Assembly: GCF_028641065.1 (NCBI RefSeq)
Contig: NC_073394.1
Coordinates: forward strand, 23,622,001 to 23,686,000
Direction: 5' to 3'
Source: Leucoraja erinacea
Lineage: Eukaryota
DNA length: 64,000 bases
In this document: one piece after another, positions 5,601 to 52,639 of the stretch
Layout of the letters: each line of letters starts with the position of its first letter
How positions within the stretch are numbered: the stretch's first letter is position 1
Translations under genes and position numbers: made by a program
Notes under the pieces: model-generated
What the model saw: only the letters and a program-made list of their open reading frames with translations
Database searches by the model: none
Told to the model about the DNA's origin: nothing

Positions 5601-8600
5601 TAAATGTGTCAAAACTCTCTAAACTTCATGCCCCATGTAGTGTAGAGGATCAGACAGCTCAATACAATATATACAATTTTATAAAATATCTTACCATGAT
5701 ATAACTTTGTTACTTCTAGAATTCCCATGAGAATCAGAAGAACCAAATCAAAAGCCAGATTACCATCAGGGAAACTAAAAACCCGACCTGAAATGTCAAA
5801 AAATACGAATGAATTTCCTGGACATTTTTAAATGTGAAGGTTTTTTGAGTAATTGTGTGATAAAAATGCAAAACTTACTTTTGTAGATAATCATGAGGAA
5901 AGTGACAATAAAGTAAAAAATGTAATAAAATATATTGAAATAGTAAACCATCTGTAGAGGGACGGAGGAAAGCTGTTGAAATTCTGGTTAAGGAATGATA
6001 CTGCGGTAAAACCTCGACATATCATCAACCTGGACCACTTAATATGAACAATTTCCTTGAGTTCACCTCCAGGATTTTTAAGCTGGCATCTGAAAATTAT
6101 GAAAGGATACTGCTTTCTAAAAAGGTAATTTTCAAAGTAGATAATTTTTCATATGTTTAGGCAAAAATAAAATATTTCTTCTGCATATTATGTGCACCAA
6201 AATGTAAATGCAAACATAAAGAATGAATTTATAATTTTACAAACTTCATTAAAATAAATGTTATCTTGTGTAGTATTCCGATCTTGATGCTTCTGGATAT
6301 CTGCAGAATCCCCCTCAGCAAAGCTACAAAATCAAGTACATTAGGGGCTCTTCCCCACAGCCTCACCCATATTCTGAACTTGCAGATTTCAGATTTATTG
6401 GGTCACTCATGGGATTCTCTATCTGTCTGTGGGGGTACATCCAGTATAGAGATTGCAGAAAATAGCCCACCACCACCTTCTCAACAGCAACTTGGTCTGA
6501 GTGCTAAATGATAATTGTTGCAAAATTCATCTTAAAGAAATTAATAAGGTAAACAACAACTCTTTCTGAAACATATTAAATGTCACAACGCACTGTCCTG
6601 TGTACAGTCGAATGATTATCTTAAGAAGCACAGCAATTATTAAAAATATTTCACTTTTGTCTTTGTAATTAGGTTACAGTGATAGATATCTCAATCTGAC
6701 CTGATGTCTCCCTGCAATAAAGCCTAAAAGCACACCAGTTCAATTTGCATCCTTAATGATAGGATTAAAATAGCAAATTATTTTTCCACAAGGAGGAGGT
6801 TGTTCATAGAACTACAACAAAACATCCTTGCATTTACTGCTACATCAAGATATAAATATTTGATAGATAATATAATGGCTTAGTGTGTAAATTAACTCAT
6901 AATTTGTGTACCAGGATCAGCGCAGTTTCAAACTCAGATCTGCACCAAATTAACTGGTCTTAACTTTGATCAATATACTATTTCATGCCCAAGCAGAAAA
7001 AAAAATCTCGGCAATTATTCGATACAGCATTGAAAATTTAGTTAAAAACTAAAATCGATCACAAATGAAAAATGTTCCAAGATGCTGGATGAGTGCCGTT
7101 ACCCTTTGATTTACAGAGTAGTCAGCAAGAAAGGTCAGACAATGAAGAGAGAAAAAATGGAGAATGTCTTGACTTAACAAATTTGAAGAGCAAGATTGGA
7201 ATGCAGAATGTATTGATCCCACATTTGAGTGATTGCTGCTTCACAAGGAGATACAACAGTCACAACAGCTGTCAGACCAACAGTCAAACTACCCCACATG
7301 ATAATTACACTCTGGAGTAAATGTTGCATTTCAATTACAGGCTACAAGAATGCCGAACTAGAAAAGAATGATATGCAACAGCTCCTGGCGAAAGGTAGAT
7401 TTTAGTCCAAAGGATACAACAGCAGCAGAATTCACTGTAATAGAAGATACAATTAACTATTAGTACAAAGGATTATAATTTACTTTACCAATTCACTAAA
7501 ATAAAGGAAATAAATATATTGAACTAAGATACTTAATTACTAGTATATAAAGATTTTAATTCATCATCTCAAATTATTCATATCAGCAGTCGTTGCAGAT
7601 ACAGAATCATTAAACTATTATGTTGCTAGAATCTTGAGCAAAAAACACAGGAGTAACTCAGCGAGTTAGGTAGCCTCTCTGGAAAGCAAGGATAGGTGAC
7701 GATTCGGGTCAGGATCCTTATTCAAACTGCAGCAGATTCTGACCCAAAATGTCGTCGATCTGTGTTCTCCAGAGATGCTGCCTGATCCGCTGTTACTCCA
7801 GCACTGTATTTTTGTTCATCATTATGTTGTTGAACTCAAAGTGCTGTCTCCAGAGAGAAAGTTTTATCCAAGAAACTTAAATGTTGATTCCTTGATTTCA
7901 CTGAACTTTGTTTCCACATCAAACCAATAAATATCAACCTCCATTAAATCTTTTAATTTTTCTTGAGCTGATCCACTTAGTTTCCTCAACAAAGTTGGTG
8001 CTGAAACAGTCATAAAGTTGTATAGCATGGTAACAGGCCCATCGGCTCAACTTGTCCATGCTGACCAAGTTGCCATATTGGGCCGGTCTTATTTACCTGC
8101 ATTTGAACCATATTCCTCAAAACCCCTTCTAGCCATATATCTGGCATAATATTTTTAAACGTCACAATTGTATCTGCTTCTATAGCTTAGGTAAGGCCTC
8201 AATATTAAAATACACAACTTTGTTTGTGCATGGACCTTTGTTGGCTAAATGAACAGTCCTTGTTGTAAACCTTCTCTGGTACCACTCTCTCACTCTTCTC
8301 TCAGCTGCACAGTGGCTCAGAGGAAGCGCTCCAGAGGGCCATTGACACGCCCAGAGGATTGTCGGCTGCCCTCTCCAGTCTTGGAGGGACCTACACACTG
8401 GCACCAAAAAAAAAAACCCAGATATAATAAAGGACACACACACAACAACTGCAATGGTGCTGCGTGCAGCATCTGTTTCATCAATTTCATCACCTTTGCT
8501 ACTAACTTCCACCCTACTCTCAAATTAACTTAGACTATTAGCCACACCTCTATCTCCATATTGAGCAAACTAGCTACTGGCCACTTACTAGAACCCCCCC

Positions 8601-17300: not shown

Positions 17301-19366
17301 TATAACATGCGTTGAATAATCCAACCACATTTTTGTTTGGAAGTGGAAAGAAATAATAGAAATTGCATTCATTGCAACGTGTAAACAGAGTTGAGATACT
17401 GTATTATAATTTTGCTGCATGTCATTGTGGTATATATCATGTCTTGATTGGTGAATATGTTTAATTTGTGACTTTATTTGAAGCAGAAATAATATGTGAA
17501 TGCTTCATTGAGCATAATTCCGACTGGTAACTACGCACTTCGTCCGAGCACATTATCGCACGCGTCATGCAAGCCGTCTTAAATGACCACCTAAACTGTC
17601 ATTTGGCAACCTAAAAAGCTGCCAAGGTTGCCCGGCTGGCAAAAAAAGTTAAGTGAGAGCCCTGCAAGGTGTATAATATTTTTGACACTGTCTTAGGCCT
17701 TTCCTACATATGCTGTCACAACACACTGTAATCTCTAAACAACTTTTCAGTAATTTGCCTTGCACTCCATTTCAGAATAATAGTGTTTTAAGCCGATAAC
17801 TCGACACTAGCACTGGCAATAGATAAATAAATAAAAAGCTCAGCCTTCCAGCCCCTTATCTCATTGGCCACGCTCATCTGCAAATCGGTGTCAATCTGGT
17901 GGACTCTTCCATCTTCTTCTAGTCGTGGAGGTTGGGGATTGTGAGGGGCCTCATAAGTTGAACAACCTAGGGCCTCTCTTCATCTGAATCCGGCACTGAC
18001 CCCCCTCCCCCACACCCCTGCCCCCCCCACACCCCCGCGTTGCATTAGGGGAATGAGTTGAATTTGGGGAATGGGTGAATGCTGGAATATTGCATTGGGG
18101 AGCAGACCCAACAGGTCTGCACTTGGTCTAGTGTTTCTATCAGATTCCCTCTCATCCTTCTAAATTCCAGTGAATACAAGCCCAGTCGCTCTATTCTTTC
18201 ATCATATGACAGCCCCGCCATCCCGGAATTAACCTCATGAACATACGCTGCACTCTGTCAATAGCAAGAATGTCCCTCCTCAAATTAGGAAACTAAAACT
18301 GCACACAATGCTCCAGGTGTGGTCTAACCAGGGCTCTGTACAACTGCAGAAGGATCTCTTTGCTCCTATATTCAACTCCTCTCGTTATGAAGGCCAACAT
18401 GCTGTTAGCTTTCTTCACTGTCTGCTGTACCTGTATGCTTACTTTCAGTGACTGATGTACTAGGGCACCCAGCTCTCGTTGTATTTCCCCTTTTCCTAAC
18501 CTGACACCATTCAGATAATCTGCCTTCCCATCCAAAGTGGATAACCTCACATTTATCCGCATTATACTGCATCTGCCAGTGCCATGCATCTGCCCACTCA
18601 CCCAACCTGTCCAAGTTACCCTGCATTCTCATAGTATCCTCTTCACAGTTCACACTGCCACCATATTTGTGTCATCTGCAAATATGCTAATGTTACTTTT
18701 AATTCCTTCATCTAAATTGCTAATGTATATTGTAAATGGCTGCAGTCCCAGCACCGAGCCTTGTGGCACCCCACTATTCACTGCCTGCCATTCTGAAAGT
18801 GACCTGTTAATACCCTACCCCCAATACCATGTGCTCTAATTTTGCCCACTAATCTTCTGTGTGGGATCTTATCAAATGCTTTCTGAAAGTCCAGGTACAC
18901 TACATCCACTGACTCTCCCTTGTCCATTTTCCTTGTTTTATTTTCAAAAAATTCCATAAGATTTGTCAAGCATGATTTCCCCTTTTGTAAATCCATGCTG
19001 ACTTGCACCAATCCTGTTACTGCTATCCAAATGCACTGCTATTATCTTTGATAATCCAGCATCTTTCCCACCAAATTAGGAGGAAACAGCAGAGAGAGGA
19101 GGATGTTTCCTGAAGCCAATAAAACTAGCTCAAGATACCTTTGATAACTACAGGGGAAAGAGAGACGAGAACCAAAAAAGATCCAAAATTATTCACAGAA
19201 TTATTAGCAAAAATACAATACATTAATAAAAATATAACTGTATAACATGTTGGAAACATTATTTTTAAGATAGCTGCTTACAAAAATACTATATATGCAT
19301 TACAAATATGCACTGGCTGGCACAGAGTGTTGATCACCTCAAGGGATGTTCGCTTTCTTCAAATAC

Positions 19367-19385
19367 TCAGTCAGCTGCGATTATA
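19367..19385 (-). CDS. TMEM216: TMEM216 probable terminal coding exon (S-I-I-A-A-D-stop)
   Basis: ctttgttttcttag|TATAATCGCAGCTGACTGA in the correct phase; too short to confirm by homology. Confidence 0.55.
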
Positions 19386-22300
19386 CTAAGAAAACAAAGT
19401 GAAATATTAGGAATATACCTCAAGTACAACAACTATTCATTAAAAGGAATTAAATGATTGAACTTAAGGTAAATAAATTATTATATACATTGCCAAACAA
19501 TTAGCTCGATTTCCTGGGAAAGAAGAAAATGTTCATAGGCACACAAGAACACGAGGAAATAGGAACAGGATTAACCTTACCGAGCCTGCCCAGACTTCAA
19601 TATGATCAAGGCTATCTATGTTGGTCTAAATCCTCTTATGTACAAGATATACAGGCAAGTGCTTGGTTTGCTTGGATTGTGTATCATAATGGGCAGCTAT
19701 AGTATCCTGGAATTTGCATGACTGTCAATTAATCAACCAGACTACAATATCCCAATTATGTATGAATTTGTGTTTTTTTTTTGCTTTTCACTGTTAGTAA
19801 TATCTTAATGGGTCTGATGAGCTTTATCTATTCCGATGCACAATATTTGCAGCAAATCACACTCTCTAACCATTTCTATGATACATGATCGGATGGATTA
19901 GTGTTGCTGAGGAATGACTTGACGCTAAATTATATGGATATAATAGGCATAGTGGTCTACATACAATTCCTTCAAACTGAAAATGTCTTTGGTTATCCCT
20001 CTTGTCTTCCCTTCCCTTACATTTTCATTTAATTAAATCAAAATTTAAATCAATATCCTCTGCTTGGGAACAAAATCAATAACATTTGTTTGTCCGAAAG
20101 GGAAGTGCCAGTGACCAAATGATAATTTTGATCTGTATTTGACATACACGGCCTTCTCCCATTTTATTTCAGAACTGTTACTCCATCTTAATAGAATTAA
20201 CCTCTTTAAAGAAAAGCATAGCTTTCTTCACAACTCAGTGTATAATAATGATTTTGAACCAAACGGAAGATTCTGATTCTGGAGAAACTTGCAGCAGCAT
20301 CTTATGGAGCGAAGGAAATAGGCAACGTTTCGGGCCGAAACCCTTCTTACTGATCGGGGGCGGGGGTGGGTGGGGACAAGAAAGGTAAAAGGAGGACTAG
20401 CCAGAAGGCTGGGGGCTGGGCGGAGACAGCAGGGGGGCTGAGGCAAATTCTATTCTGCTAGTGGCAGGTTAGGTTATGTTAACTGGAGCAACAACTGAGC
20501 CTCTGATTTGGAGGATGAATGCAAAGTAAACCAGCTTGTTCCTGTTTACAATGTATTCTTCATGCTCCAGTTTCCTTCTACATCCCAAAGAAGTGCGAAT
20601 TTGTAGGTTAATTGACCTCTGTACACTGCCCCTAATGTTTAGGGAGTGGATGTGAAAGTGGGATAACATAGAACATGTGAAAAGGTGATTGATGGATGAT
20701 GTGGGCCAATGGGCCTATGTCCATGCTGTATCTCTAAACTAAGAGAATTGGGCTCAGTGTTTTTACCCTCAGTCTTGGCAGCGTAACAAGCAGGAAAGGG
20801 AGTTCACAAAATTCTGAAGAATTTGCCCAGATTTGAAAGTCGCTTCCAAACTTGAATACAAACCCATAGTCACTGTACTTGCAAGAACAGGCATGAACAT
20901 TTAATAATGAAAATCATCTGGAAATGTGCAGAGAAATTGTTCTTCTTACCTTGAGAAACTCATCAAGCCCACGATGTACAGAACCAATTCAAAGACATAA
21001 AAAACCAACAATATTGCATTGATGGTCAGTTCCAGCCTTAGAACATAGGTCTGCAATATCAGATAGTAAATTGCCATTATTGTAGATGGCCCAAGAAGCA
21101 CCAGGCTAATAGTGAGAGGCACCTTGCGTTGAGACAGATTCCCCTTGGAACCTAATGCAAAATTTAAAAAGTAATTAGATAGATATTTATCTTACATTCA
21201 ATTATTCACAGCAGAAGAGATGACTAATTGCAGTTTCAGTCTGTTACTTCACCCAGAGCCATTTTACCGTTGTGCACCTGGAAAATTATTGTTTTCTAGG
21301 CATCACAGCCAAATCTCACCTCTCCTTACCCAATTGTCAACCATTTGTCCCTCTCAACTTGATTCCCATACAGCTGCAATCCCCAATGACCCAGGTTTCA
21401 AGAGGCCAACCTCCAGAATTTTCTCCATCAGCTCTCAGCCTTATTGAATGGTTTCCTTGGCAACAGGCTATTTACTCGCTCCTGCACTACTACTTCGCCG
21501 TTTTATTCCACAAGGGTAATTTGTTAATGTACTTTTGGCCCCATCACTTCATTTCAATTGCTCAACACTTTTCATTTTTCTCAGCACTCGTTCAATATGC
21601 TGGTGACATGCACTTTGAGCATTGTGTTCAGTTTTGGTCATCCTGCTGATAGGAAAGTGGCCACTAAGCTGAAAAGAGTGCAAGGAAGATTTTAAGAGGG
21701 TTAAGGGGGTAAGTTCTCTGTTTGGAATTAAAGGAGAAGGTGTACATAGTTACAGCATTTTGTTATTTTTAATAATTTCTAGTATTCTCACTTACACCTC
21801 CTTGACCTATTGTTTGTCTCTTCACTTATCCCTTTATCATCCTGTTTTGCATTATCATATATTTTGTAATTATTGTCTGCATATTCAATCACATACTTTT
21901 GTTTTATTTTCTCCTCTTGCCATTTTCTGCATCTTAAAATGGATAGTTATTATTCTGAAACATTAACTCTGCCCCACTCCCCACAGATACTGCTCGACCT
22001 GGAGTACTTTAATTTCACTTTTAAAACAAAAAATATTTTTCACTTTAGATAGACGTTGAATTCTCTAATTTTAAGTAAATGCTACCAACACTCCCTTCCC
22101 CTCTTGCCCTCTTCCTTCACCCTAGATTAAACAGTTCCAAAGTTCGCTACATTTATTTCCTTTTTGAGATCACACTTTCTCTAGCCAACATTTACCCACC
22201 AGGGCAGCACCCTACCTGAGGTCATTTGTTGCCGCCTCCGATTTGTCCTGGTCTTTTCTCACCTCCAGCTCTTCCGTTCCCCCTCCCCCTCCATCCCCTA

Positions 22301-25300
22301 CATTCAGTCTGAAGAAGGGTCTCAACCCAAAACATGACCTATCCTTTATCTCCAGAGATGCTGCCTAACCTGTTGAGTTACTCCTGTACTTTGTATCTAT
22401 CTTTGGTATAAACCAGCATCTGAAGTTCTTTGTTTCTATATTATTTTTAACTTTGTTTGACAAGTAGTAAGATCCAAGGAAGGTAAAACACTGCATTCAA
22501 CCTTCAATGAAATAAATAGTCAATAAATAAAAAAATCCCCCCTGTTATTTTCTTCATGGCACTGGCCAGAATTCTAAATTATCTACTTTCATAAGTTATG
22601 AGGCAGAAAAGTCTGAGACATAATGTCCCTGGGATTCAACTCTATACAAACTTTCAGAAGTAGTTTTAGGGTAACTTACCAAAGAATATCCTTAATATTT
22701 CAACCCCAAGGTACAAAAACAGCATGACTAGATCCAAAGCCAGGTTTGCAGAGGCATAGGGCAACACCAGACCTATAACATATAACAAAGGAGCATTACA
22801 AGTTGGACAAGAAGTTATGCGTGGAAACTGCACATCTCAAGTCTAAGTCACGGCCAGACCTGCCACAGAATATTAGCAAAACATGGAATGATTGAAGCAG
22901 CAAGAGTTGCTTGTTATTAGTACACTCAGAACATTGGCCAAGACAAACAGTGGACCCAATAATTCCAAAAGCTCCTTCCAAATGTGCGACTCCAAACACC
23001 AAGAATGTCAAAAGGCAACTGGCCATGGATATATCAACAAGTGAAAATTCCTCTCCAAGGCACATATCATCTTGATTCTGATATACAGTATTGTTCCTTT
23101 ATCATTACTGGGTTGAAATTCTGGAACTCCTGCTCCTGAGGATTATGGAAGTACCTTCACCAAAAAGCTGTTTGGTGACTCACCGCCACCTTCAAGGAGA
23201 ATTATAGACGGGTAATACATATTGGCCTTCCCAAAGACATTAATTTAATAGAAAATGGATAATCTCACGAAATATACAAGATGCAAGGAAGGATTGACAA
23301 GGTGGATGTTGATAAGACTGTTGTCTTTTGCTCAACGTCTAGTAGGAGATGTGGTTGGCCATTTAAGATTGAGAGGAAGGGAGTTCTTCAATATTAGGGT
23401 TGTGAATCTTTGCCGTTTTGCACCCCAGTGTAGAGCAGATGTTCAGTTGTGGAATATATGCTGGCTAAATGTATCTGGTACCCATGCCAACAACATCCAA
23501 CTCTACCTCACCCGTACCAAACTTTTCCTGGTTCATTGGATTTGATTTGTGACATTGCTTCCTCAGCATTCAAAAATGGAGGGGCAATAATAGTGTTCAA
23601 TTAAATATTGGTACCTGTAATACCAAAGTCACTACCTTCAGAAACATTGTATACTTTGTACTGAATATTTTTGTCCATCTTTGGCATTGTGTCTAATTCT
23701 AGGCTGAGCAGCCATCTCATATCCTTCCTCTGAGAACGGCTGTTTCCATCTCCACCTTTATTGCTGAAACTCTGAACAGGATTTTGCTTTAATTGGAGCT
23801 TAATAATGTTAAAGCTCTCCTTGAGGGCATGCATTTTATATATTCAAAGGATGGCATGTTTTTGAAATAATTCAAACAAAATTTGGAATTTTATTGTCGG
23901 CATGTAGATGATCACTTCCTTCTAAAATTAAATGTGTAAGACCAATGCAATGACATTTCCACATATAGCTCACAGACCTCTCGTCCATGCATGCATCATT
24001 ATTAACAGGTAAGCAGCAGTGAAAGGTATTTCTGTAACTCTATGTTTATACAAGGCAGATACCCCACATAATGAATATCTGATTACCCTGCCAGGAAATG
24101 TAGTACTTGTATATAACATATTTGAGTTAAGCTTTAACAATTTCTAACAAAAATAACTTGCTGACATTCATGATCCTAGCTCATATAATAATTTGCATGC
24201 TTATCGTGGCTTTAAAACAGTTAACCAATCCATCACGGGATAATGAGCATTTTAAAGGCTTTTAAAAGGTACCACCTAAATTGTAACACAGCACAAATTA
24301 CTCCAAATTATAGTGAAACAAGCATTTAATGTGTTTTCAGTTAAGTTAAAATGTTTAACTTTTACTTCCAGTTTTTTCATTCTACTGGAAATAATATTAC
24401 TTAAAAAAAGAACCAAGCTATGTTGAAAATTTGCAAAATAAAGTGACAAAAAACCTAATTTTTTGCCCTCACATTCTACATTTTCCACTAGTCAATATAA
24501 ATAAGAAATACAATTTTAGAAGCATAGATATCACATACTACAATTAAAAGTAACGATTAAAACTCACAACATAGGATTTAGAACATACTTTTATATATGA
24601 AAAAAAGGATCTCTGCCACAAAGTACGCTGCAAAGTACCAGCTGTTGAGGAGTAGGAGAATTTCCAGTGGGGCCAGAGAGAGCTTTTGCAAAAAATTAAG
24701 GAAGGATCACAAATAACATTTTATTAATTGATGATTATATTTTAGCAAACTGAAGTTTCAGAAGTGTAACTAACTATTGAGAAATCATAAGCCTTTTATT
24801 AATGAGGGTGGCAATTCAGCATTATCAGGTTTATGTTATGGACATGACAACTGTGATTCCAATAGCATAATCCTAATTCCATGCAAAAACGACATAATCA
24901 GCAAAGGGAAGTCTTTGCAGCTGGTCTCGAACATTCCTCGTTTTCAATTATTTGCCCATGTGCATCAGGAATAATTTTTAATTCATAAAAGGATACAACT
25001 GGAGGTGGTTTTCCTGTAAAATACAACAATTATAAGACACTGGTACATGTTCCTCACAAACCATTGAGTAAAAATAAAGCACGTGTGAACTAAAGACTAG
25101 TCATGTGTAGGAAGGAACTGCAGATGCTGGTTTAAACCGAAGATAAGACACAAAAAACTGGAGTAACTCACTGGGTCAGGGAGCATCTCTGGAAGAAAGG
25201 AATAGATGATGTTTCGCATCTGAAGAAGTGTCTTGACCCGAAACGTTACTTATTCCTTTCCTCCAGAGATGCCGTCTGACCCGCTGAGTTACTCCAGCTT

Positions 25301-27258
25301 TTTGTGTCTATCTAAAGACTAGCCATCTTGTCCAGGAAAGGCTAAATTTGACCTTTCTTGGAACACATGCTAATTTCAAGTTTATTCTAACTATCACAAT
25401 TGCTGGAATTATTTATTGCTAAATCTAGGTAATTCTTTCATAAAATAATTTTGGAATACTTCCAAACCATATTTCTGCCTTGCTTCTTTACTAAGTCACG
25501 AATAAATTCCGATCAGGCAAGCAGCAACCTTTGACTCAAATGATTATTTTCAATCTTGGCCCTCCCCTGTTAACAACTTATTCTCCTGTGCAACACCTTC
25601 CTGGTAAACTTTACTTCCTTCAAGCACCTGGGTCATTCTACCTTCTACAAACCCTGGATCATTCAAATTTCTGTTACACCATGCCATCTGACCCGCTGAG
25701 TTACTCCAGCACAAAATGCTAGAGTAACTCAGCAGGTCAGGCAGCATCCTTGGAGAAAAGGAATAGGTGATGTTTCAGGTCAAGACCCATGCCTTTTATT
25801 CATCAGCTCTGTGCTTGCTGACTCACACTGCTTCTCATAAGCAACACTTCATCTTTCATTTCAGGTCCCTCGTCTTTATAAGCTCTTGTCCTTCCACTCT
25901 TCAAGACAATTTCACTCTAATTCTGGCTTTCAACATTGATCACTTTACCATTGGTGCTAAAATCTTCAGGTGTCAATCCACCAATCTTTCCTCCTTAATC
26001 TTCTCTCCCCTGCTTTTATTTATTCCTTTGATAACCCTTCTCAGCAGATTTTGATCGTTGTTATTGATAGTCAGTGCCAAATGTTATTTATTCTCCTTAA
26101 TAAGCATCTTAGGATGTTTTACAACATTAAAAGGCATTTTTTAAAATACTGATCAAATACAAACTTGGGAAAAGAAACAGGTTTATTTTTTCCCAGTATT
26201 AAGTTTTACTATCAACAGAAAACATTAGAGGTAAAACAAGCATTAAGGTGCTGAGAAATAGAGGGAGCCCAGACAGGGTGGAAGCAGGAGAAGTCTTGAA
26301 GCTGGAATCTTTTGTCAGAACTGAAAAAAACGAATTTAACCTGAAGCAAAAACTGTTATTCTCTCGTTAGTATTGCCTGTTATTCTATCGTTAGTATTAA
26401 CCAGCATTTTCCAAAATTAATTTTCAAGAAAGATTATAGTGCTTTACATTGGAAGAGGAAGGGAAATTAAGAATTGATATACAGACTAAACACAGTGAAC
26501 TGGACACTGGTTTACAAAAAAAGTTGCAAAGTGTTGCAGTAACTCAGCGGTCATACAAGCTGTTGTTAATTATTGTTGGGGGAAACCCTAATTTCTCCAA
26601 TATTGATTTCTATAATTTCAAGTAACCCTTGTATCTCCCCTCTCTCCATCCCTACCCCCACCCAAGTCGTCTTGTTGAGTCTAATTGTCAGTAACTCGTT
26701 TTCACTTAGTTTCCGTTATCATCTTTACTTTTTTGGATATCTTTCATTCATTTGTTCTATATTTCTCGGCATCACCGTCTACATCTCTCGTTTCCCTTTC
26801 CCTTTGACTCTCAGTCTGAAGAAGGGTCGTTTCCGAAACGTCACCTATTTATTTTCTTCGGAGATGCTCTCTGACTCGCTGAGTTACTCCAGCTTTTTGT
26901 GTCTATCTTCTAATTACAGATGCAAATGGTAAAATGGCCATACAGTACTTTAGTTTCTAGATACACACACTAAGCCTACTCCTTTCCAAATATGTTAACG
27001 TTCTGTTCCTGGTTGGGAAGTGAATGCCTCAATTCGTTGACATTTTATGAATAAGATTTCACGATCCCGCTCCTTCTTTCTGTGCTCGTTTTGAGTAACA
27101 AGTGTTTGTGAAGGTCGCTATTTGCTTGTCAATAACGCTTTGGAGGGTCGGGTTATGCTGGAGATCAAAGATCCTAGAGGAGCTCCTCTAGTATCTTTGC
27201 TGGAGATGGACTCGCCGCCGTCGCCCCAGATGCCGCCGCGACACTCACCTCTCGCCAT
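19367..27258 (-). CDS. TMEM216: TMEM216 (MKS2/JBTS2 ortholog), 6 coding exons, 144 aa
   Basis: Exons 27249-27258, 24997-25013, 24589-24682, 22680-22772, 20950-21151, 19367-19385 join in frame (435 nt): MARGKPPPVLSLAPLEILLLLNSWYFAAYFVAEILFFIYKSLVLPYASANLALDLVMLFLYLGVEILRIFFGSKGNLSQRKVPLTISLVLLGPSTIMAIYYLILQTYVLRLELTINAILLVFYVFELVLYIVGLMSFSSIIAAD. Confidence 0.93.
20950..21151 (-). CDS. TMEM216: TMEM216 coding exon 5 (202 nt)
   Basis: cattag|GTTCCAAGGGG...TCAAG|gtaaga; KGNLSQRKVPL...QTYVLRLE. Confidence 0.95.
22680..22772 (-). CDS. TMEM216: TMEM216 coding exon 4 (93 nt)
   Basis: ttatag|GTCTGG...CTTTG|gtaagt; LPYASANLALDLVMLFLYLGVE. Confidence 0.95.
24589..24682 (-). CDS. TMEM216: TMEM216 coding exon 3 (94 nt)
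   Basis: caaaag|CTCTCTCTG...TAAAA|gtatgt; PLEILLLLNSWYFAAYF. Confidence 0.93.
24683..24996 (-). other. U12-type (minor) GT-AG intron of TMEM216, 314 nt
   Basis: Donor GTATCCTTTT; branch site TTCCTTAAT at 24695-24703, 12 nt from the exon boundary. Confidence 0.88.
24997..25013 (-). CDS. TMEM216: TMEM216 17-nt micro-exon (coding exon 2)
   Basis: gtattttacag|GAAAACCACCTCCAGTT|gtatcctttt; gives G-K-P-P-P-V and restores frame. Confidence 0.87.
27249..27258 (-). CDS. TMEM216: TMEM216 first coding exon (M-A-R-G)
   Basis: aagATGGCGAGAG|gtgagt in a CpG island; phase-1 donor after MxxG as recalled for mammalian MAPR-G. Confidence 0.85.
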
Positions 27259-27264
27259 CTTTGC

Positions 27265-27311
27265 CTCACCATGACAACAGCTCCGGCGACCATCCGTCAC
27301 TTCCTGGTAAC
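27265..27311 (-). promoter_or_regulatory. TMEM216 CpG promoter/5' end with RFX X-box and ETS-like site
   Basis: GTTGTCATGGTGAG (27265-27278) is X-box-like; CACTTCCTGGTAAC near 27298-27311. Confidence 0.65.
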
Positions 27312-27425
27312 CAACCCCGGTCGGTATCACGCGGGATATCACACAAAGCTCTGCTTCAAAGATCTTCGGCACGAAGTGCTGGTGGAATCAGCGGGACACG
27401 GGTAGCATCTGTGCAGTAGGAATGG

Positions 27426-27461
27426 GTGACGTTTCGGGTCGAGACCCTTCTTCAGACCCTC
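27426..27461 (-). ncRNA. Minimal hammerhead-ribozyme-like motif in a Penelope terminal repeat (representative copy)
   Basis: GGGT-CTGAAGA-A-GGGTC-TC-GACCC-GAAA-C-GTC-ACCC: CUGANGA and GAAA core, stem II, palindromic loop-less stem III. Similar copies at about 16260, 25220, 26815, 40160, 52380, 58012. Confidence 0.55.
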
Positions 27462-30184
27462 CTTCGTGTTTCGACCAGAATCGTCACCATTCCTTCTCTC
27501 CAGAGATGCTGTCCCGCTGAGTTACTCCAGCTTTTTGTGTCTCTCTTCGGTTACATACTCTCTGCCGCAGAAGTAGTTGAGGCCAGTTCATTGGCTATAT
27601 TTAAGAGGGAGTTAGATGTGGCCCTTGTGGCTAAAGGGATCAGGGAGTATGGAGAGAAGGCAGGAACAGGATACTGAGGGATGATCAGCCATGATCATAT
27701 TGAATGGCGGTGCAGGCTCGAAGGGCCGAATGGCCTACTCCTGCATCTATTTTCTATGTTTCTATGTTTAAACCTGCACCTCCTTCCTACACAAGTGTTT
27801 GGTGGACATACATGAGGAGGAGGAGGACGGGGGGGGGGTCTGACTGACAGATGCGTGGGTTAAGAGACAAGGCAGAAATGCGTGTCAGATAAGGTGTGAA
27901 ATGTAAAGACAGAGGGAGGGATATGGATAGCAGGAGACAGGAGAAGAGGGGACTAAAGCAGAGACGGGGATGTATGATGTGATCTTTTTAAACCTCGCAC
28001 TCAAATTTTATCAGCTACTATAATCAAAAGGAAAAATATTTTAAAAAACAAACAACACCGGACTAGACCTCACACAACTTGAAATTCCCTTAAATAATTT
28101 GGGGATCTTTTGATTTGGAGTGTTTTACCTGAAAAGATGATGTCAACAAATCTATTTTTCAAAATTAAATGGATGCTTAATTTGTATTTCTGGAAAGCTT
28201 TCTTTTGGTGCAAAACACCTCATTTTGAATATCACTAATTAAAGCTCCTGATATACTTCTCTACTATGAGAACATCTCAGCTGTAAACTGATTATACATG
28301 AACAAATTATTTTGTTTGTCTTGGAAAATTAGTTCAATGGTGATATTTCACTCTCTCCAGATCTGGTACAATGTGGCAACTCAGTGTACAGTGTACAATG
28401 TGTGCTCATCCAGTGTACAGTGCTGTCTTTAATAAGGCAAGACACCTTGGTTAAGTAATCCAAAATACATATTTTCAACTTTATTTCAACAATTAAACAT
28501 GTTTGAAAAGCCCAAACTGGATTAACTGATGGAATTTGCCAATGGAATGAGATGAAAACTATTTTGTAGTCTGAAGAAGGGTCGTGACCTAAAATGTCAC
28601 GTATCCATGTCCTCCAGAGATACTGCCTGACCTACTGAGTTATTCCAGCACTATGTTTTTTTACTCATGATTTCAGCATCTGCTGTTCCTTGTGTCTCTC
28701 TGTTTAGTACAATAATCCCTTATTCACTGAGGTGGATAAACGAAAAGGTAACACCTTTGGTAAACTATTAACAGCAAAAAAAAATCAATAAACTTGTTGA
28801 AAATTTTCTTTACATATTTAATACAAAACAATCACAATACAGAAATGTTCAAGAAAATAATCTATTATAAAAGTTGTCATACTAATCTGGTTCACAAAAT
28901 AAACAAATATATTTTAATACAAGAACAGTTATCATGAAATCCATCATGGAGAAAATAGCAGGACTTAAAACACATTATTCAAATTAAATTGAAGAAATGG
29001 AACTGTATATTAGGGCAAACTAAATACTGCATATCATTTTGACTCAAAAATATAAAGAGTAAAAATATTTTAAAAGTTAGGCTCGAAGTGGATAAATACA
29101 ACAACAAGCTAGAGTAAAAATTCAAAACAATTACAAATCAATTAGCTAGTTCTGAAACTTGGTCACCTGTCTCCCATGTAGTGCATTACGGTCCTCAGTA
29201 CCTTATTTGTTGTGTTATTGATGGGAACAAACACAGAGATACAGCTCATTGTGCCTTTTATAAATCAATAAATTAGAGATGGTACAAGACCTTCCCCCAA
29301 TATGTTCCCCTCCCTTACAACAACATAGCTTGCAAAATTCTAACAATCCCCTTACGATGCCATCCATGCAGCTCCTTGGAAATAAAGCAAAAAAATATTG
29401 TTGAGCATATACAGGGTACAAAGTTCTATGATGTTATTCAACTTATTTTTAAAGATGATCAGATGGAGCAGATAAATTGTGTTTTACCATTTTATTTGGA
29501 AAGGAGATAGAAATGGGCAGTATGGGGCTGGGGAACTATGACTGGAGTGGAGATAGCCAGAGATTATGAGATCCGTAACGGTTAGGAGATGATGGCTTGG
29601 CGTTAATATGTGGGGCCAGAGTCAATGGGTAGGCGTGAGGAGATATCCGATCTGGCCTCAGCCTGGTCGTCTGATTTTGTTAGAGAAGTTAATAGAAGTA
29701 GGCAATCTGGGGTTGGGTAATTTTTTGTGGGAGGTAGATAGAAGCTGGCAGAATGGGGCTGGGGAATTTTTGTGTTATTTATACAAGGTAGAAAAAATGC
29801 TGAGAAACAAATGCATGGACCTGAAACTAATTTGCACCTGAAAGAATTAGCAGTGCCACAGAACTGTTCCACACCAAAAGTATGTGCCACCAAGAGGAAG
29901 GTATGAAGTGGGGGAAAACTAGCAAAACATCTTGATTAGTGAGAGTTCAATAAAAATAATGATTGTACAGAGAAAAATATAATTAATGGCAAACGCATGA
30001 TTTAGCAGTGAAGTGCTTAGAGGATTAAGCTCTCTTAATTGCATACAACTGTCTTAAAACAATATTTTATTTTCTTCAAATATGGGTAGTATACTGAAAG
30101 TTAAATATGCTCTATATTTAGTCCAAATCTTGAACATGTCAAATACTCAATTTTTAATTTGGAGTATTGCAATACTCTGCCAAC

Positions 30185-43617: not shown

Positions 43618-43955
43618 CTATTCTTTTGGAAGTGGTATTCCGAGAGCTGTGTGATTCTGCACATTTCTGGCTTTTTCTACATCATCTGCGGAGCAGATGT
43701 CTTCGAGAAACAGATTTGCTAAGTTACTCAAACGTTTGTTTTTGGACAGAGAAAAGCGTAGCATACACTGAATAACTGGCACTGCTGTAATTTCTTGTTG
43801 GGACAAAGGTGTCGTCAGGTACATTAATGTGGTAATTGCAGATAGCACAGTGTCTTCATTAGAGCTGGATAAGCAGTCCAGCACTGCCTGAACTCCATTG
43901 TTCTGTAAAATATATTCTTTGTTCTGTTTCTCTAGACACAAGTTACAGAGGCCAC
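43618..43955 (-). CDS. ARMC7: ARMC7 last coding exon
   Basis: ttccctcag|GTGGCCTCTGT...GAATAG. Confidence 0.95.
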
Positions 43956-46900
43956 CTGAGGGAAAATGAAAATATTATCAAATCTAGGGTCTATGAAAAT
44001 AAGGGAATAATATACAACAATTATGGGTAAGTATACAATGAATGCCAACCCTCATTAAATATGAATTTAATTGTCAAATGTTCCATAACTCCCTTCTCAT
44101 TTAAAAAAAAATGGGACATACAGTGCCCTCCATAATGTTTAGGACAAAGACCCATAATTTATTTAGTTGCCTCTGTACTCCACAATTTGAGATTTGAAAT
44201 AGAAAAAAATCACATCTGGTTAAAGTGCACATTGTCAGATTTTAATAAAGGCCACTTTTATACATTTTGGTTTCACCATGTAGAAATTACAGCTGTGTTT
44301 ATACATAGTCACCCCCGATTTCAGGGCACCTTAGGCTTACCAAGATCAACTGTTTGGAGCATCATTAAGAAGAAAGAGTGCACTGGTGAGCTTACTAATC
44401 ACAAATGAATTCTGAAGTGTGCAGACATATCCTATTTGCTCAAATTCAAACAAATTCCTCAAATCTCATTGGCCAGCGGTTCATTCTACAGCAAGACAAT
44501 GATCCCAAACATACTGCTAAAGCAACAAAGGAGTTTTTCAAAGCTAACTAATATATGGTCAATTCTTGAATGGCCAAGTCAATCACCCGATCTGAACCCA
44601 ATTGAGCATGCCTTTTATATGCTGAAGAGAAGACTGAAGGAGACTAGCCCCCACAAAAGGATAAGCTAAAGATGGCTGCAATACAGGCCTGGTTTCTTCT
44701 TTCAGGTCCTTATGCTATATAGTGGCTCGCAACTGCTTAACACATCGTTGCGCTATTGGAGTGTGCAAGGTCTGCAATAGTCCATGGATTATTAGCATTA
44801 GGTGTAGCATTGTCTGGGTCTGTGTACCACAGTCACAGGTTGTTGTACCTTCGATGTAGTCCCATTTGTGCATTGTCACCCTTGACTCCCCGATCCCGGT
44901 TCACAGTCGGTTGAGACATCTCCAGTGTTTGTTCATCAGCACCTGGTGGTAAGCGCTCTGCTGCTAGTATGCCCATCTTGGTGGAATTAGGGACAGTCTG
45001 TTCTTCCACATCTGGAAGCGAGCTTCAGTTGGTGTTGTTTCCAATGGGGTGACGCTGGTCAGGAAACTCGTGGGATTTTAACCGCCTAGGAGGGGGCACA
45101 TGATTGTGTAATGGGTGTCTATCGTCTGACAGGCCTGGCAGAGAATAATCAGAGAAACCACCCAGCAACTGGTGATGTGCATGAATCACAGACTTCAAGC
45201 AGTCATTGCATGCAAAGGATATGCAAAAAAATACTAAACATGACTACTTTCATTTTCATGATATTGCTGTGTCCCAAACATTATGGTGCCTTGAAATGGG
45301 GGTGCCCCACCGTGCCCCAACAGCAATGTCATGAAAATGAAAGTAGTCATGTTTAGTATTTTTTTGCATATCCTTTGCATGCAATGACTGCTTGAAGTCT
45401 GTGATTCATGCACATCACCAGTATAAACACTGCTGTGATTTCTACATGGTGAAATCAAAATGCATAAAAATGGCCCTTATTAAAATCTGACTATGTGCAC
45501 TTTAACCACATGTGATTTTTTTCTATTACAAATCTCAAATTGTGGAGTACAGAGGCAAATAAATAAATGATGGGTCTTTGTCCCAAACATTATGGAGGGC
45601 ACTGTACATTAGAAAACCTTGCCACCAAATTAACATTGTGAGGACAATAATATGACTTACTAAACACACATTCATGGCTCCACAAGAAAATCTAGAGACT
45701 GAACGATACAAATTGTCTTTTAGAAAGAGTGGCTATCACACTCCAAGGCTTGCAAACTGACAACCAATCATTTTACATTGCCATTAATGCAGTTTAGTAA
45801 ACGAGTCTTGAAAACAAATTGATCGGGACAGTTATAAGACCCATACCATCTAGAATTTTTTTCCCAGTAATAATCTTCTACGTTCATATGACAAGAATTG
45901 CCCTACACTTGAGTCACCGCTCAACTGCCTCCTGAGATTTAAAGTTGATTCACAACAAGCCTCCTGCAGATCGATATGACATATTTCATGATTTGGAACT
46001 CAGGGCCACCGTAACATGTTGGGTAATCAATCTTTTGTGGAGCAGATGCCCATGTGTGGATTCTATTAAGGGTCATCCACTGTCTTTGAAGGACGTCAAT
46101 GTCAAGTACCTGTCTGTTAAATCTGTCCTCTGAGTTATATGCATCCCTCTTCAATAACAAAATGTAAGTAAGTAATTTTATTGGCCAAATATTAACATAC
46201 AAGGAATTTGCCTTGGTGCCCCGCCCACAAGTAACAACATGACATACAGTGACAGTTACGAATGACTCAGAAAAAACTAAACATTATTAATAATAAAACA
46301 TTAAAGATAAAACACCATTGATCAAGCATGTGAACCAACAAAATACCAGATCAAAGGGAGGCTACAGATTTTGGGCTTTTGGGTAGAGTAACTACTCGTG
46401 GATAACTGTTTTTATGTCTGGCTGTGGCAGCTTTGACAATCCAGAGTCGCCTTCCAGATGGAAGTGATTCAAAGAGTTTGTGGCCAGGGTGAGAGGGGTC
46501 AGAGATGATCTTGCCCGCTCGCTTCCTGGCCCTTGCAGTGTACAGTTCATCAATGGAGGGAAGGTTGCAGCCAATAACCTTCTCTGCTGATCGGACGATT
46601 CGCTGCAGCCTCCAGGTGTCGTGCTTGGTGGCTGAACCAAACCAGACCATGATGGAAAAGGTGAGAACAGTCTCTACGATGGCCGTGTAGAATTGGACCA
46701 TCATTGCCTGTGGCAGATTGTGCTTCCTCAGCTGCCATAGGATGTACATCCTCTGTTGTGCCTTTTTGATTGTGGAGTCGATGGTAGACCCCCATTTAAG
46801 GTCCTTGGAGATGATGGTTCCCAGGAACTTAAAAGACTCCACAGATGTGACTGTGGTGTTGTTGATGGTGAGTGGGGCGAGGAGAGGGGGAGCTCTCCTA

Positions 46901-49900
46901 AAGTCTACAATCAATTCCAGTGTCTTAAGAGTATTGAGCTCTAGGTTGTTGCAACGGCACCAGGACGCCAGCTGTGACACTTCCTGTCTGTAGGCAGATT
47001 CATCTCCATCCTGGATCAGTCCAATCCGGGTTGTGTCGTCCGCAAACTTGAGAAGCTTGACAGAGGTGTCTGTGAAGGTGCAGTCGTTGGTGTAGAGAGA
47101 GTAGAGGAGAGGAGAGAGTACGCAGCCTTGTGGTGCTCCTATGCTGAGCGTTTGCGGGTCCGAGATGTGCTTTCCCAGCCAAACATGCTGCTTCCTGTCT
47201 GTCTGGAAGCAGGTGATCCACCGACAGAGGGGTTCAGGCACAGCCAACCCGGAAAGTTTGGAGTGTAGTAGCTCTGGCACAATGGTGTTGAATGCAGAGC
47301 TAAAATCAACAAACAGGATCCTCGCATAGGTCCCCTGGCGGTCTAGATGCTGTACGATGAAGTGCAGGCCCAGGTTGACTGCATCATTCACAGATCTATT
47401 GGCCCGATATGCAAACTGCAGAGGGTCTAGCAGGGAGTTTGTGAGGAATTTCAAGGAATTTGCCTTGGTGCTCCGCCCACAAGTAACAACATGACATACA
47501 GTGACAGTTACGAATTACACAGAAAACACTAAACATTAATAATAATAAAACATTAATGATAAAACACCATTGATCAACCATGTGAACCAACAAAATACCA
47601 GATCAAAAGGAGGCTACAGATTTTTGGCTGTTGAGTAGAGCAACTACTCGTGGATAAAAACTGTTATGTCTGGCTGTGGCAGCTTTGACAGTCCGGAGTC
47701 GCCTTCCAAAGGGAAGTGATTCAAAGCGTTTGTGGCCAGGGTGAGAGGGGTCAGGGATGATCTTGCCCGCTCGCTTCCTGGTCCTTCCAATGTACAATAA
47801 GTAGTTTATAATCGATCTCTGGGTCAGTTCTTGAGCAGTGAAATTAAAGGGACAGGTCGGAGTATCTGTTAAATATCGCAATCATCGGATGTTGCTGGGT
47901 TAATGGAATGAGCTGGCAGAGGGGTAGTTGAGGCAGATACTATAACAAGAAGACAATTGGACAGGTAAATTGATAGGAAAGGTTTAGAGGGATATGGGCC
48001 AAACATGGGCAGGTGAGACTAGTGTAGATAGGGCCGAAGGGCATGTTTCCGTGCCATATAACTATGATCTACAACACAGAAAACCCAACCATGACCTACA
48101 TCATTGAACATCAAATAAATAGGTGGATATAAAAAAAAACGACATTTCATTGCAATACGTGCAGTGTGGTATTTTTCCCAATATACAAATGTTTGTCGTT
48201 AAATCTCTAAGAAAGTATGAATAAAAGTATGTGCTGCTCTAACAGGTTAGCCTGGAATGTACAACATTTGCAGGATCAATATAATCCGACTACAGTACAG
48301 GCAGTGACATTGCTAATAACAAACATTTCTTTTCTTACCGATTCCAAATTCTACAAATCTTTCATTTTCTTCTGTAAGCATGTCCAGAAACAGATCAATG
48401 ACTTGCAACTGTCGAAGATACTGATAGTTACTGGGATCATATGCAAAATTAGCCAGGTTTGCCAGAACTTGCTCCTTTGAATCTGAGAAGTTAACAATAA
48501 AACACTGAGCATGAATGCACATTTGATATATAAAGCCATCCTTCAATTGGTTTCTTTGTGAGTATTAAGTGATTAACATATTATTAAACAAGGAACAGTA
48601 TTCTGTAAAAAAAACCTCAACAATGCTTTCTTAGTGAAAATTCCTTAAGGTACTGCTTTATATCCCATTCTACATGGATCATAATCTTATCAAGTGTCTA
48701 TGGTTCAATGTTCCAGTGACACTTACAGGTACGAAGGAACTGCAGATGCTGGTTTACACCGAAGGTAGACACAAAATACTGGAGTAACTCAGTGGGACAA
48801 AAAGCATGTCTGGAGAACATGGATAGGTGACATTTCAGGTTGGGATCTTTCTTCAGATTGATTATAGCAGGGGGAAATCTGGAAGAGAGGTGGGGCAGGA
48901 CAAAGCCAGGCAAGCGATTGATAGATAAAATGAAGGGGGGGGGGGGGGGGGAGTGATTTGATTGGCAGATGGTTGGACAAAGGCTAGAGATGAAAATTAA
49001 AAAAATGAGAGATAAGGAAAGAAGAGGTGAAATGTTAAGCCAGATCAAGGAATAATGATGGAAGTGGGCAGGGGAGGGGGTGGGGTGCGAGGGGGTAGAA
49101 TTGGGGGGGGGGGGGGGGGGGGGGGAAAGGGAGAAATTAGTCTACATCCAGTTGGGAAACATGAACGAGAGGGGGAAACGGAGGTGTGTGGTTAGGTTGG
49201 GGCTTGTTTACCTAAAATTGGAGAATTCAGTGTTTATATCGAAGGGTTGTAAGCTACCCAAGTGGAATGAGGTGCTGTTCCTCCAGTTTGCATGTGGCTT
49301 CATTTGGGCAATGGAGGAGGCCCAGGGCAGAATGGTCAGTATGGCGTGTGGCCTCATTTGGGCACGGGGCAGAATGGTCAGTATGGGAATGGGAAGAGGT
49401 GTTAAGAAGGTTAGCAATCGGGAGATCCAAATAGCCTTAGTGGACCGAGTGCAAGTGTTCAGCAAAACAGATGACTAGTCTACGCCCTTTCCCATTCCCA
49501 TACTTTGTGTCTTGTTCGGTAAGCCAACATCTGCAGTTCTTAGTGTCTACAATAAAGGATGACAAATAATTTTGCCCCAGAAGAACAGGAAGTAAAATTA
49601 GTATGGGTGGAGACAAGCGATAAAAAGAGATAAAAAACAGGGAATTGTTTACATGACTCCTTAAAGCTGTACTGTTGGAGATAAAATTAAACACAAAAAT
49701 AGAATTTCTAGCAGAGATAATATAATGATGGGAGACTTTAATATTCATATGGACTGGGGAAATCAAATTGACAAAAATACTTGAGGATGGTTTCACAGAA
49801 TAATTTGGGACAGATAGTAACTATCCAAGGCGCGTTTGCAATTTAATAATAACAGATCCCTGAGGGAAAAGTTACCACAAGATAGAAGAATTGCGCATTC

Positions 49901-51010
49901 AGTTGATGAGTAACATAATTTAATCAGAAACTAGAGTCTTGAGTTTAAGTAATGCCAGTCACATAGAGAACTGGAGTGATTTAAGCAAGGTAGACTGAGA
50001 AATGTGATTAAATAGTTTGAAACTAGATAAACAATGCTGAAGTATTGAATGCAGTTCTGTTTGACACACGATAGGTAGCATATGATTTTGCTTAAGAAAG
50101 TAAAAAGGAAATTCGTGGGGATGTTACGGAGGGTGTAGGAAGAACTGCAGATGCTGGTTTCAACCAAAGATAGACACAAAATGTTGGAGTAACTCAGCAG
50201 GACAGGCAGCATCTCTGGAGAGAAGGAATGGATGGCGTTTCAGGTCGAGACCCTGCTTCAGTTTGAACCCGAAACATCACCCATTCCTTCTCTCCAGAGA
50301 TGCTGCCTGTCCCTCTGAGTTACTCTAGCATTTACTAGGATAGGACGTTAATTATGGAGCAAGAGAGTGAAATTAGGCTGGGCTTGTTTTCCACTGGAGC
50401 AGGGAACGCTGAGGGATGACCTGATCAAGGTTTATCAAATTTATAAGAGGTATAGATAACGTAGAAAGTCGGAATCTTTTCCGCATGGTAGGAGTTTCAA
50501 GAACAAAAGGCATAATTTAAAAGTGAGAGGTAGAAGATTTAATTGTGGCCCTATGGGTAAGTTTTTTTTTCACACAGTTGTCTGGAATGCAATGCCGGAG
50601 GAAGTGATGGAATCAGATACAATTACCACATTTAAAAGACATTTAGATTGGCATGGTAGAGATGGAAATAGTCTTAATGTGGACAAATAAGATTACTGTA
50701 GATGTACAAAAAGGCTAGCATGATTGAGGTGAGCTGAAGGGCTCATTTCCATGCTGTACTACTCTAACACACCAAAGGCAATTTAAAAAGAGTGTCAGGG
50801 GTTATGGGGAGCTATGATTGAATGGCAAAATAGCCTAATTCTGCTCCTATAACTTATATGAACATGAAATATTTCATAATTCACAAGGATCACCATCCTA
50901 CACTTACCTTGACTGTCAGTATCTTGAAATTCAGTAACAAGAGTTTGCAAGTAATCAAACCGATCTTGTCCCTGAGACTTACTTTGTAAATACCGACTGG
51001 AGGTGGCCAT
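43618..51010 (-). CDS. ARMC7: ARMC7 armadillo repeat protein, 3 coding exons, 194 aa
   Basis: Exons 50908-51010, 48339-48482, 43618-43955 join in frame (585 nt): ...[52 protein letters not shown]...VEFGIGGLCNLC...[12 protein letters not shown]...[12 protein letters not shown]. Confidence 0.95.
44121..45604 (+). mobile_element. Tc1/mariner transposon, internally deleted
   Basis: TA-flanked long TIRs starting CAGTGCCCTCCATAATGTTT; transposase remnants QQDNDPKH and [15 protein letters not shown]. Confidence 0.92.
44693..45128 (-). mobile_element. Non-LTR retroposon 3' fragment (Ingi/I-like) inserted in the Tc1
   Basis: 10-bp TSD ACAGGCCTGG (44683-44692, 45129-45138); NRL*TG...MHKWDY...CDCG...QTMLHL; GAAAGAAGAA tail. 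Confidence 0.65.
46180..47790 (-). mobile_element. Two head-to-tail Rex1/Babar LINE 3' ends (46180-47450 with a 367-aa RT ORF; 47452-47790)
   Basis: DPLQFAYR...[12 protein letters not shown]...[13 protein letters not shown]...KFADDT; the 3' UTR is duplicated. Confidence 0.9.
48339..48482 (-). CDS. ARMC7: ARMC7 coding exon 2 (144 nt)
   Basis: ttctcag|ATTCAAAG...AATCG|gtaaga. Confidence 0.95.
50908..51010 (-). CDS. ARMC7: ARMC7 first coding exon (acceptor at 51031)
   Basis: caaATGGCC...TCAAG|gtaagt. Confidence 0.9.
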
Positions 51011-52639
51011 TTGAATTGAACTCCGTGCAGCTGCATACAAAAGAGAAAATTGATCACAAACCCAAATTAAGTCAAAACCATCTAATTGTCATATGAGCTG
51101 AGAATAGAATATTTAAATTATTATTTGCTACAGCTCATACATTAACCTGGCAATACAACAAACAACTATACAATAAACAACACTATACAATAAATGGATA
51201 GCAGTATGAACATTTAGTGCAACATAAATCGAAATATACATAATTCTTAGAATCTGTGATACAGAATTGATGGAATGTCCAGAATCATGGATGAATTTCA
51301 AAATAAGAGGGAGGCCATTCATGACAGAGATAAGAAAAAGGTAATGAATCTTTGGAATTCTCATCCAGGATTTGTGGACTTGGTCAGGTCAGATTCAGAC
51401 ATCATAAGATTTGATTTGTTTTGTTTTGTTTCAGTGAAAAGCTTTGTTTTTAATGCTATCCAATCAGATAATATTTGAATACAATCAAATCAATTAAAAT
51501 AGGTTGTGCAAAGGGGAAGATACAGAATATAGTTCTAGGTATTGTAGTGCATCAGTTCCAGAGATGAAGTCAAATGTCTGCAATGGGGTAGAGGTGGATC
51601 GGACACGACCCCGGCTGATGGAAGGACCTTTCCATCATTCTCTGCCTGATAACAGCTGTCCCTGGATTTTGCTGCAAGAGACAGACCTGGCCCAATCTAC
51701 AAATACATGAAAATGCAATTTTTAATTTTATTTTTTAAATATAGGTTTTTTCCCTCTAGCTTCACTGGCAATTATGTTTAAAACTAGTGGGAAAGGATAT
51801 TCAGGTTGAATCAGAGATCGTACAGGCCACATTGAGAGCACCAAAAGCAGTAAAAAAAACATTGGTCTGAAACATCATCTGTCCATTTCCTTCACAAATG
51901 ATGCCTGACCCACTGAGTTCCTCCAATATATGTTTTTTTTTGCTCAGGAATTCCAGCATCTAGTTTCGTATACACTTTCAAAAATCTAGTGTACAAATAC
52001 TTGAAGGATTACAGGGAAAGAGGGGATGGGAATAACTGGATGATGCTAGTAAAAACTATGAAAGGTTGGATGGGGTGAGTGGCCTTTCTCCTTGGTTGAA
52101 GCAATTTTATAACCTGATAAAAGATTGGGACATGGAAGGCCATTTGACTTTACTGGCCTGACCTTTGTTTTATGACTATTATCTTAGTCTGGGGGAAATA
52201 TGTTTGGCATCTCCTCCAAAAGTCATCCAATCCATACAGATCAAGCTTCATTTCTGTGCAATGTAATGATAAGAACCCAGGGATGATTCCACCAGGGTTA
52301 AACGGGCACTAAAAAAAAATACAGAGTGCTCGAGTAACTCAGCAGGTCAGGCAATATCCTTGGAGAGAAGGAATGGGTGGCGTTTCGGGTCGAGACCCTT
52401 CTTCAGACTCAACTATTAAAGACAGTTTACCCAAAAGGAGACAAAGTGCTGGAGTAACTCAGCGGGTCAGGCAGCATACCTCAAGAACATGAATAGGTGA
52501 TGTTTTGGGTCGAGACCCTTCAAATTGATTAAGAAGGCTAAAGAAGGGACAGGAACCGAAACATCACCTATCAATGTTCTCCACGAAAGCTGCCTGACCC
52601 CCTGAGCACTTTGTCTCCTTTTGTGGAGACCAATGTAGC

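Follow-up and report, generated by a model that had tools for sequence, protein, structure and literature searches.

In the skate Leucoraja erinacea, TMEM216 contains a 17-nt exon followed by a U12-type intron, a predicted substrate of the minor spliceosome, and its sister gene TMEM80 carries such an intron at the same codon. The comparison of vertebrate TMEM216 proteins suggests a likely loss of the intron in the common ancestor of amniotes, probably through one in-frame deletion in which the final three codons of the micro-exon also disappeared.

TMEM216 lies on the minus strand of the window, the 64-kb stretch of skate DNA that was analysed and whose numbering is used throughout. The coding part of exon 1 (27258–27249, 10 nt) ends in phase 1 at a U2-type donor, GTGAGT, and is followed by intron 1 (25014–27248, 2235 nt), also U2-type, with an acceptor ending in TTTTACAG. 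Exon 2 (25013–24997) is the micro-exon. Its 17 nt fall within the 3–27 nt that define a micro-exon, complete the codon of Gly4, encode KPPPV, and are identical in translation to RefSeq record P0040. Intron 2 (24996–24683) is a 314-nt GT-AG intron of U12 type in phase 0, with the donor GTATCCTTTT and the branch site TTCCTTAAT (24703–24695), which begins 21 nt upstream of the acceptor AG. Exon 3 (24682–24589, 94 nt) starts in phase 0 and encodes the first transmembrane segment; exon 4 (22772–22680, 93 nt), exon 5 (21151–20950, 202 nt), and the coding part of exon 6 with the stop codon (19385–19367), which matches the tail of P0040, complete the gene. The translation of exons 1–5 agrees at 138 of 138 residues with P0040, which is XP_055505574.1 of this species and begins MARGKPPPVLSL. 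The protein matches PF09799 and groups with TMEM216, not TMEM80, at 100/100, and a search with exon 5 finds elasmobranch proteins named TMEM216.

The preliminary description had proposed that the 17-nt exon bridges the phase-1 end of exon 1 and the phase-0 start of exon 3, and the identity of the spliced product with XP_055505574.1 bears out this structure and lends indirect support to inclusion of the exon in the mature mRNA. Its further claim, that automated annotation would easily miss such an exon, does not hold here: because the spliced product is XP_055505574.1, RefSeq already has the micro-exon, and its peptide is contained in the RefSeq proteins of this skate and of many other elasmobranchs. 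The concern is not baseless, though: 3 of 31 chondrichthyan records (P0010, P0016, and P0024) join foreign sequence exactly at the micro-exon/intron site. By translation, skipping of exon 2 shifts the frame and leads to a stop after 33 codons, and retention of intron 2 leads to a stop after 41 codons. Since both outcomes truncate the protein, exon 2 is expected to be constitutive, and full-length TMEM216 to depend on the minor spliceosome. Membership in the neural SRRM4-regulated class of micro-exons, which are frame-preserving and alternatively skipped, was considered and rejected, as a 17-nt exon shifts the frame when skipped. Two upstream ATGs on the minus strand (27293 and 27272) are out of frame with TMEM216, and their reading frames arrive at the donor of exon 1 in phase 0. 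These ATGs would be in frame with exon 3 only on micro-exon skipping and otherwise, if transcribed, would open an overlapping upstream reading frame.

U12-type introns are recognized by the 5′ splice site RTATCCTT and by the branch site TTCCTTRAY near the 3′ end. Intron class was judged by counting mismatches to the consensus. The donor of TMEM216 intron 2 has no mismatch to GTATCCTT and its branch site none to TTCCTTRAY; the other three introns of the gene that were scored have 3–5 mismatches at the donor and 3–4 at the branch site. In 60 order-2 Markov simulations of the 64-kb window, a donor with its branch site and AG no more than 1.5 kb away arose at a rate of 0.017 per simulated 64 kb, with a maximum of one. 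The window itself holds three such donors with two branch sites, all within TMEM216 (one donor) or TMEM80 (two donors). The earlier claim that a U12-type intron follows the micro-exon is thus upheld by a perfect donor and branch site and by this chance rate.

It is scarcely credible that these signals are coincidental, or that intron 2 is spliced by the major spliceosome. The intron does have GT-AG ends, and whereas U12-type introns have a weak polypyrimidine tract or none, pyrimidines occupy 14 of the 18 positions from −22 to −5, partly those of the branch site itself (12–13 in the U2 introns of the gene). Against this reading stand the rarity of such pairs in the simulations, the identical signals at the same codon in TMEM80, and the response of homologous minor introns to loss of minor-spliceosome function: zebrafish tmem216 responds to rnpc3 loss, mouse Tmem80 in one of six U11 sets, and human TMEM80 in the MDS set only. 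From the signals and the catalogued homologues, intron 1 would be removed by the major spliceosome and intron 2 by the minor spliceosome. Sequencing runs X12, X16, X19, and X1 give an exon depth of about 1–3 reads per run over 19000–28000, in tables dominated by repeats, and no read across 24997/24682 or 27249/25013 appears among the joints listed. The first 412 of the 733 letters of a contig from run X1, which comes from a related species and is flagged “probably DNA”, cover 24587–25026 with the U12 intron retained, and differences of X1 at the same depth (33.1) appear in exon 5. Read as a transcript, this contig, a graph path and not proof, may have its downstream introns removed and the U12 intron retained. 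Minor splicing is slow, which fits such a reading.

TMEM138, TMEM216, and TMEM80 lie head to tail on the minus strand (33800–3840), with the end of TMEM138 about 2.9 kb upstream of the TMEM216 start. A Tmem138–Tmem216–Tmem80 tandem cluster of basal vertebrates was reportedly described for the elephant shark by Venkatesh and colleagues in 2013. The same three genes stand in the same head-to-tail array in the skate, although the subject there was gene order. In Scyliorhinus torazame, a protein model (P0018) runs TMEM138 and TMEM216 together at the micro-exon, which is likely an annotation artefact arising from their proximity. ARMC7, a subunit of the activated minor spliceosome, is found directly upstream of TMEM138 (43618–51088, minus strand), a proximity that is probably coincidental; its last exon matches PDB 7dvq_K with an E value of 5e-42. 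A short, repeat-derived inverted duplication at 45090–45476, centred near 45295, carries a U12-like ATATCCTTT motif on both strands.

TMEM80 was found as a second match inside the window in a search of the skate's own genome and was identified by its nearest named relatives and by the tree. Its micro-exon (7434–7418, minus strand) is likewise 17 nt long, completes a Val codon, and encodes NSAAV. A GT-AG U12 intron of 1445 nt follows (7417–5973), with the donor GTATCCTTTG and the branch site TTCCTTAAC at 5995, and then come exons of 94 nt (5972–5879), 93 nt (5787–5695), and 202 nt (4041–3840) on the same strand. The 17/94/93/202 exon layout is common to both genes, and the U12 intron interrupts both at the same codon and phase, which means that the intron predates their duplication. 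In the tree, TMEM216 and TMEM80 form separate 100/100 clades, and since each holds sharks and birds, the duplication in turn predates the shark–bird split. The suggestion that the intron is ancestral therefore gains support from its shared position in TMEM80. Indirect transcript evidence for the TMEM80 micro-exon junction comes from P0125, a protein derived from a 1123-nt Logan contig, which matches the spliced exons, this junction included, without mismatch over 134 residues, while the matched exons span more than 3.5 kb of the genome.

Several further observations concern TMEM80 and its family. A candidate upstream exon (11419–11396, minus strand) matches the first eight residues of P0125; it may be an alternative first exon, since other rays and sharks start differently. 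The TMEM80 minor intron also contains a second perfect U12 donor, GTATCCTTT (6110–6102, minus strand), at a distance of 138 nt from the acceptor. It could be an alternative donor, and mouse Tmem80 makes heavy use of a cryptic donor in the corresponding intron; perfect-donor motifs of this kind are expected by chance about 0.9 times per window. The full TMEM80 orthologue in elasmobranchs contradicts a legend in PMC4794247 that places the orthologue in tetrapods only. The skate genome holds two further PF09799 genes (C25:18902729–18904389 and C16:45778471–45782778). Both, which we take to be TMEM17-like, have a phase-1 intron just upstream and run through the U12 column uninterrupted. The idea that the intron is older than the whole PF09799 family is therefore unsupported, and in this genome the intron is restricted to the TMEM216/TMEM80 branch. 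A metagenome scan yielded, among 102 pattern matches, one locus, a distant homologue at 26% identity that has neither introns nor a U12 donor and is uninformative.

Catalogues of minor introns place the same feature in other vertebrates. The supplements of Olthof 2019 (PMC6717393) place TMEM80 among the minor-intron genes of human and mouse, with the donor context GTG|GTATCCTGC; because GTG precedes the donor, a Val codon closes the mammalian TMEM80 exon, just as it does in skate TMEM216 and TMEM80. The human (chr11:698889–700141) and mouse (chr7:141332930–141333637) introns thus resemble the skate intron in having a GT-AG U12 donor after a Val codon, but they belong to TMEM80, not TMEM216, and the mammalian donor (GTATCCTGC) is weaker, whereas both skate donors are consensus. 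TMEM216 has no occurrence in eight supplement files of Olthof 2019, the minor-intron gene list included. In Olthof 2024 (PMC11347168), the human and mouse TMEM80 introns are “minor-like” and responsive in one data set each, and Table S6 classes a zebrafish tmem216 intron of 89 nt (14:25040329–25040417) as “minor” and responsive in both rnpc3 data sets. A human TMEM216 gene identifier is absent from that supplement; TMEM80 is likewise absent from its orthology table, so this absence adds little. The Larue and Roy supplement has no entry for TMEM80 or TMEM216.

The zebrafish intron lies in the same gene, is classed as minor, and responds to rnpc3 loss, but is 89 nt long against 314 nt in skate, and its position is presumably the same. 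In the accessible text of a zebrafish knockout study (PMC7425700), the guide encoding the first-transmembrane segment lies in exon 3, the number that this segment bears in skate. Other teleost records suggest a 14-nt exon, as opposed to 17 nt in skate. For human TMEM216, the available part of a case report (PMC12069472) places c.143 in exon 3 and c.253 in exon 4. Through a primate record (P0075), these map to residue 43 in skate exon 4 and to residue 80 in skate exon 5. As the human exon numbers run one below those of skate, human TMEM216 appears to have one exon fewer upstream.

The loss was dated by counting the residues between the split codon and the LSS column in the best 120 of 452 matches and in two further protein searches, with the fusion model P0018 and two Logan records without an organism left out; the counts are of records, not species. 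Five residues follow the split codon in 25 of 31 chondrichthyan records, in bichir, in one of two coelacanth records, in lungfish, and in 8 of 11 amphibian records, and four in five teleost records. Two residues are found in 43 of the 44 amniote records with a normal start, the remaining one, a passerine, having three, and none of the 66 amniote records lacks such residues ahead of the LSS column. Breaks or starts fall exactly on the intron site in six non-amniote records, compared with none of the 66 from amniotes. Foreign starts are joined just before KR/RR in 8 of 39 mammal records, which marks a retained phase-1 intron, so that intron 1 is the one kept in mammals. The marsupial and placental G-R-R/G-K-R agree with the first three codons of the amphibian micro-exon. 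Since the peptide has five residues in most non-amniote records and two in nearly all amniote ones, the loss of the intron, together with three codons, likely dates to the amniote stem as judged from these protein sequences.

The preliminary description had placed the loss on the way to mammals and had named the same intron in mammalian TMEM216 as the finding that would remove that claim. TMEM216 of human and mouse does not appear in the minor-intron gene list, in agreement with the numbering of the human exons, so the loss itself is supported; its timing shifts, as the shortening maps by protein length to all amniotes. Support for the absence of the intron itself covers human and mouse only, and length can change while the intron stays: the five teleost records are one residue shorter, and zebrafish keeps a minor intron. 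On these grounds the micro-exon might instead have shrunk to 8 nt in the amniote stem with the U12 intron kept, to be lost only in mammals and retained by reptiles and birds. We regard this as quite improbable, because none of the 27 sauropsid records breaks at the intron site, where six non-amniote records do, and because an 8-nt exon would often be mis-modelled.

As for the manner of the loss at the amniote stem, a single in-frame genomic deletion would have removed intron 2 together with the last 9 nt of the micro-exon. Such a deletion is favoured because the shortening abuts the intron site, because the residues G-K-R, G-R-R, and N-R-H of amniotes resemble those with which the micro-exon peptide opens in amphibians, coelacanth, and lungfish (GKR, GRR, and GKH), because the intron is short, and because the flanking introns are kept. 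The same loss could also have taken two steps, a precise removal of the intron, for instance by cDNA recombination, and, independently, an in-frame deletion of 9 nt in an N-terminal tail whose length can vary. This tail does tolerate indels, as the four residues of five teleost records and the three of one passerine attest, and the available text of Lin et al. 2010 (PMC2831892) ascribes three of eight vertebrate U12 losses to retroposition. Two independent steps are nevertheless rather unlikely, if worth some weight: the shortening abuts the intron site exactly, no intermediate occurs among 66 amniote and 11 amphibian records, and the flanking introns persist (intron 1 from isoform breakpoints, the downstream introns from human exon numbering). 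On present sequences a single deletion is not distinguishable from precise loss plus a separate 9-nt deletion.

Another route begins from a Gln codon that stands just before the LSS column in 18 of 27 records from sauropsids (turtles, crocodilians, snakes, and many birds); this codon would be a fossil of the old acceptor. The micro-exon would have been abandoned in favour of a new major-class acceptor lying 8 nt before the U12 one, so that the old intron was absorbed into intron 1 and its last eight bases now code. At minor introns, alternative splicing most often makes use of cryptic splice sites, mouse Tmem80 uses a cryptic donor at 51–83% across tissues (Olthof supplements), and in skate a spare AG lies 11 nt ahead of the acceptor of the TMEM80 U12 intron. 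We hold such an acceptor shift to be improbable, however, since the G-K-R/G-R-R of mammals and the N-R-H of skink match the start of the micro-exon peptide, as a deletion predicts, and since Arg to Gln or His takes one base change. If true, it would add a third way of losing a minor intron to the two of deletion and in-place conversion, and the gene concerned is a Joubert/Meckel gene with a sister, TMEM80, that remained dependent.

Vertebrate minor introns are very stable. Surveys anchored on human do not easily reveal losses that occurred on the human lineage, and the TMEM216 loss, for which a single deletion is preferred, offers a datable case with a built-in control, as the sister gene TMEM80 kept the intron. 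The available portion of Lin et al. 2010 (PMC2831892) counts vertebrate U12 losses in 8 of 180 clusters, with mouse Elof1 as an example. Those cases likewise concern a single U12 intron lost by deletion within vertebrates, whereas the TMEM216 loss lies on the human lineage and coincides with a three-codon shortening. The intron is only partly new: its homologue is already catalogued in human and mouse TMEM80, and a minor intron is listed for zebrafish tmem216. No report of a U12 intron loss in TMEM216 was found in the literature searched, and the MIDB, IAOD, and intronIC databases may already record the species pattern. TMEM216 thus appears to be a real, modest, and partly catalogued instance of a known, rare event, the loss being one apparently unreported evolutionary detail.

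The loss also bears on how fish models of minor-spliceosome disease are read. In the accessible portion of a 2026 u4atac zebrafish preprint (10.64898/2026.08.20.745718), tmem216 serves as an epistasis control only. Because tmem216 is a minor-spliceosome target in zebrafish but apparently in neither human nor mouse, the ciliary phenotype of rnpc3 and u4atac fish could in part run through a target that patients lack.
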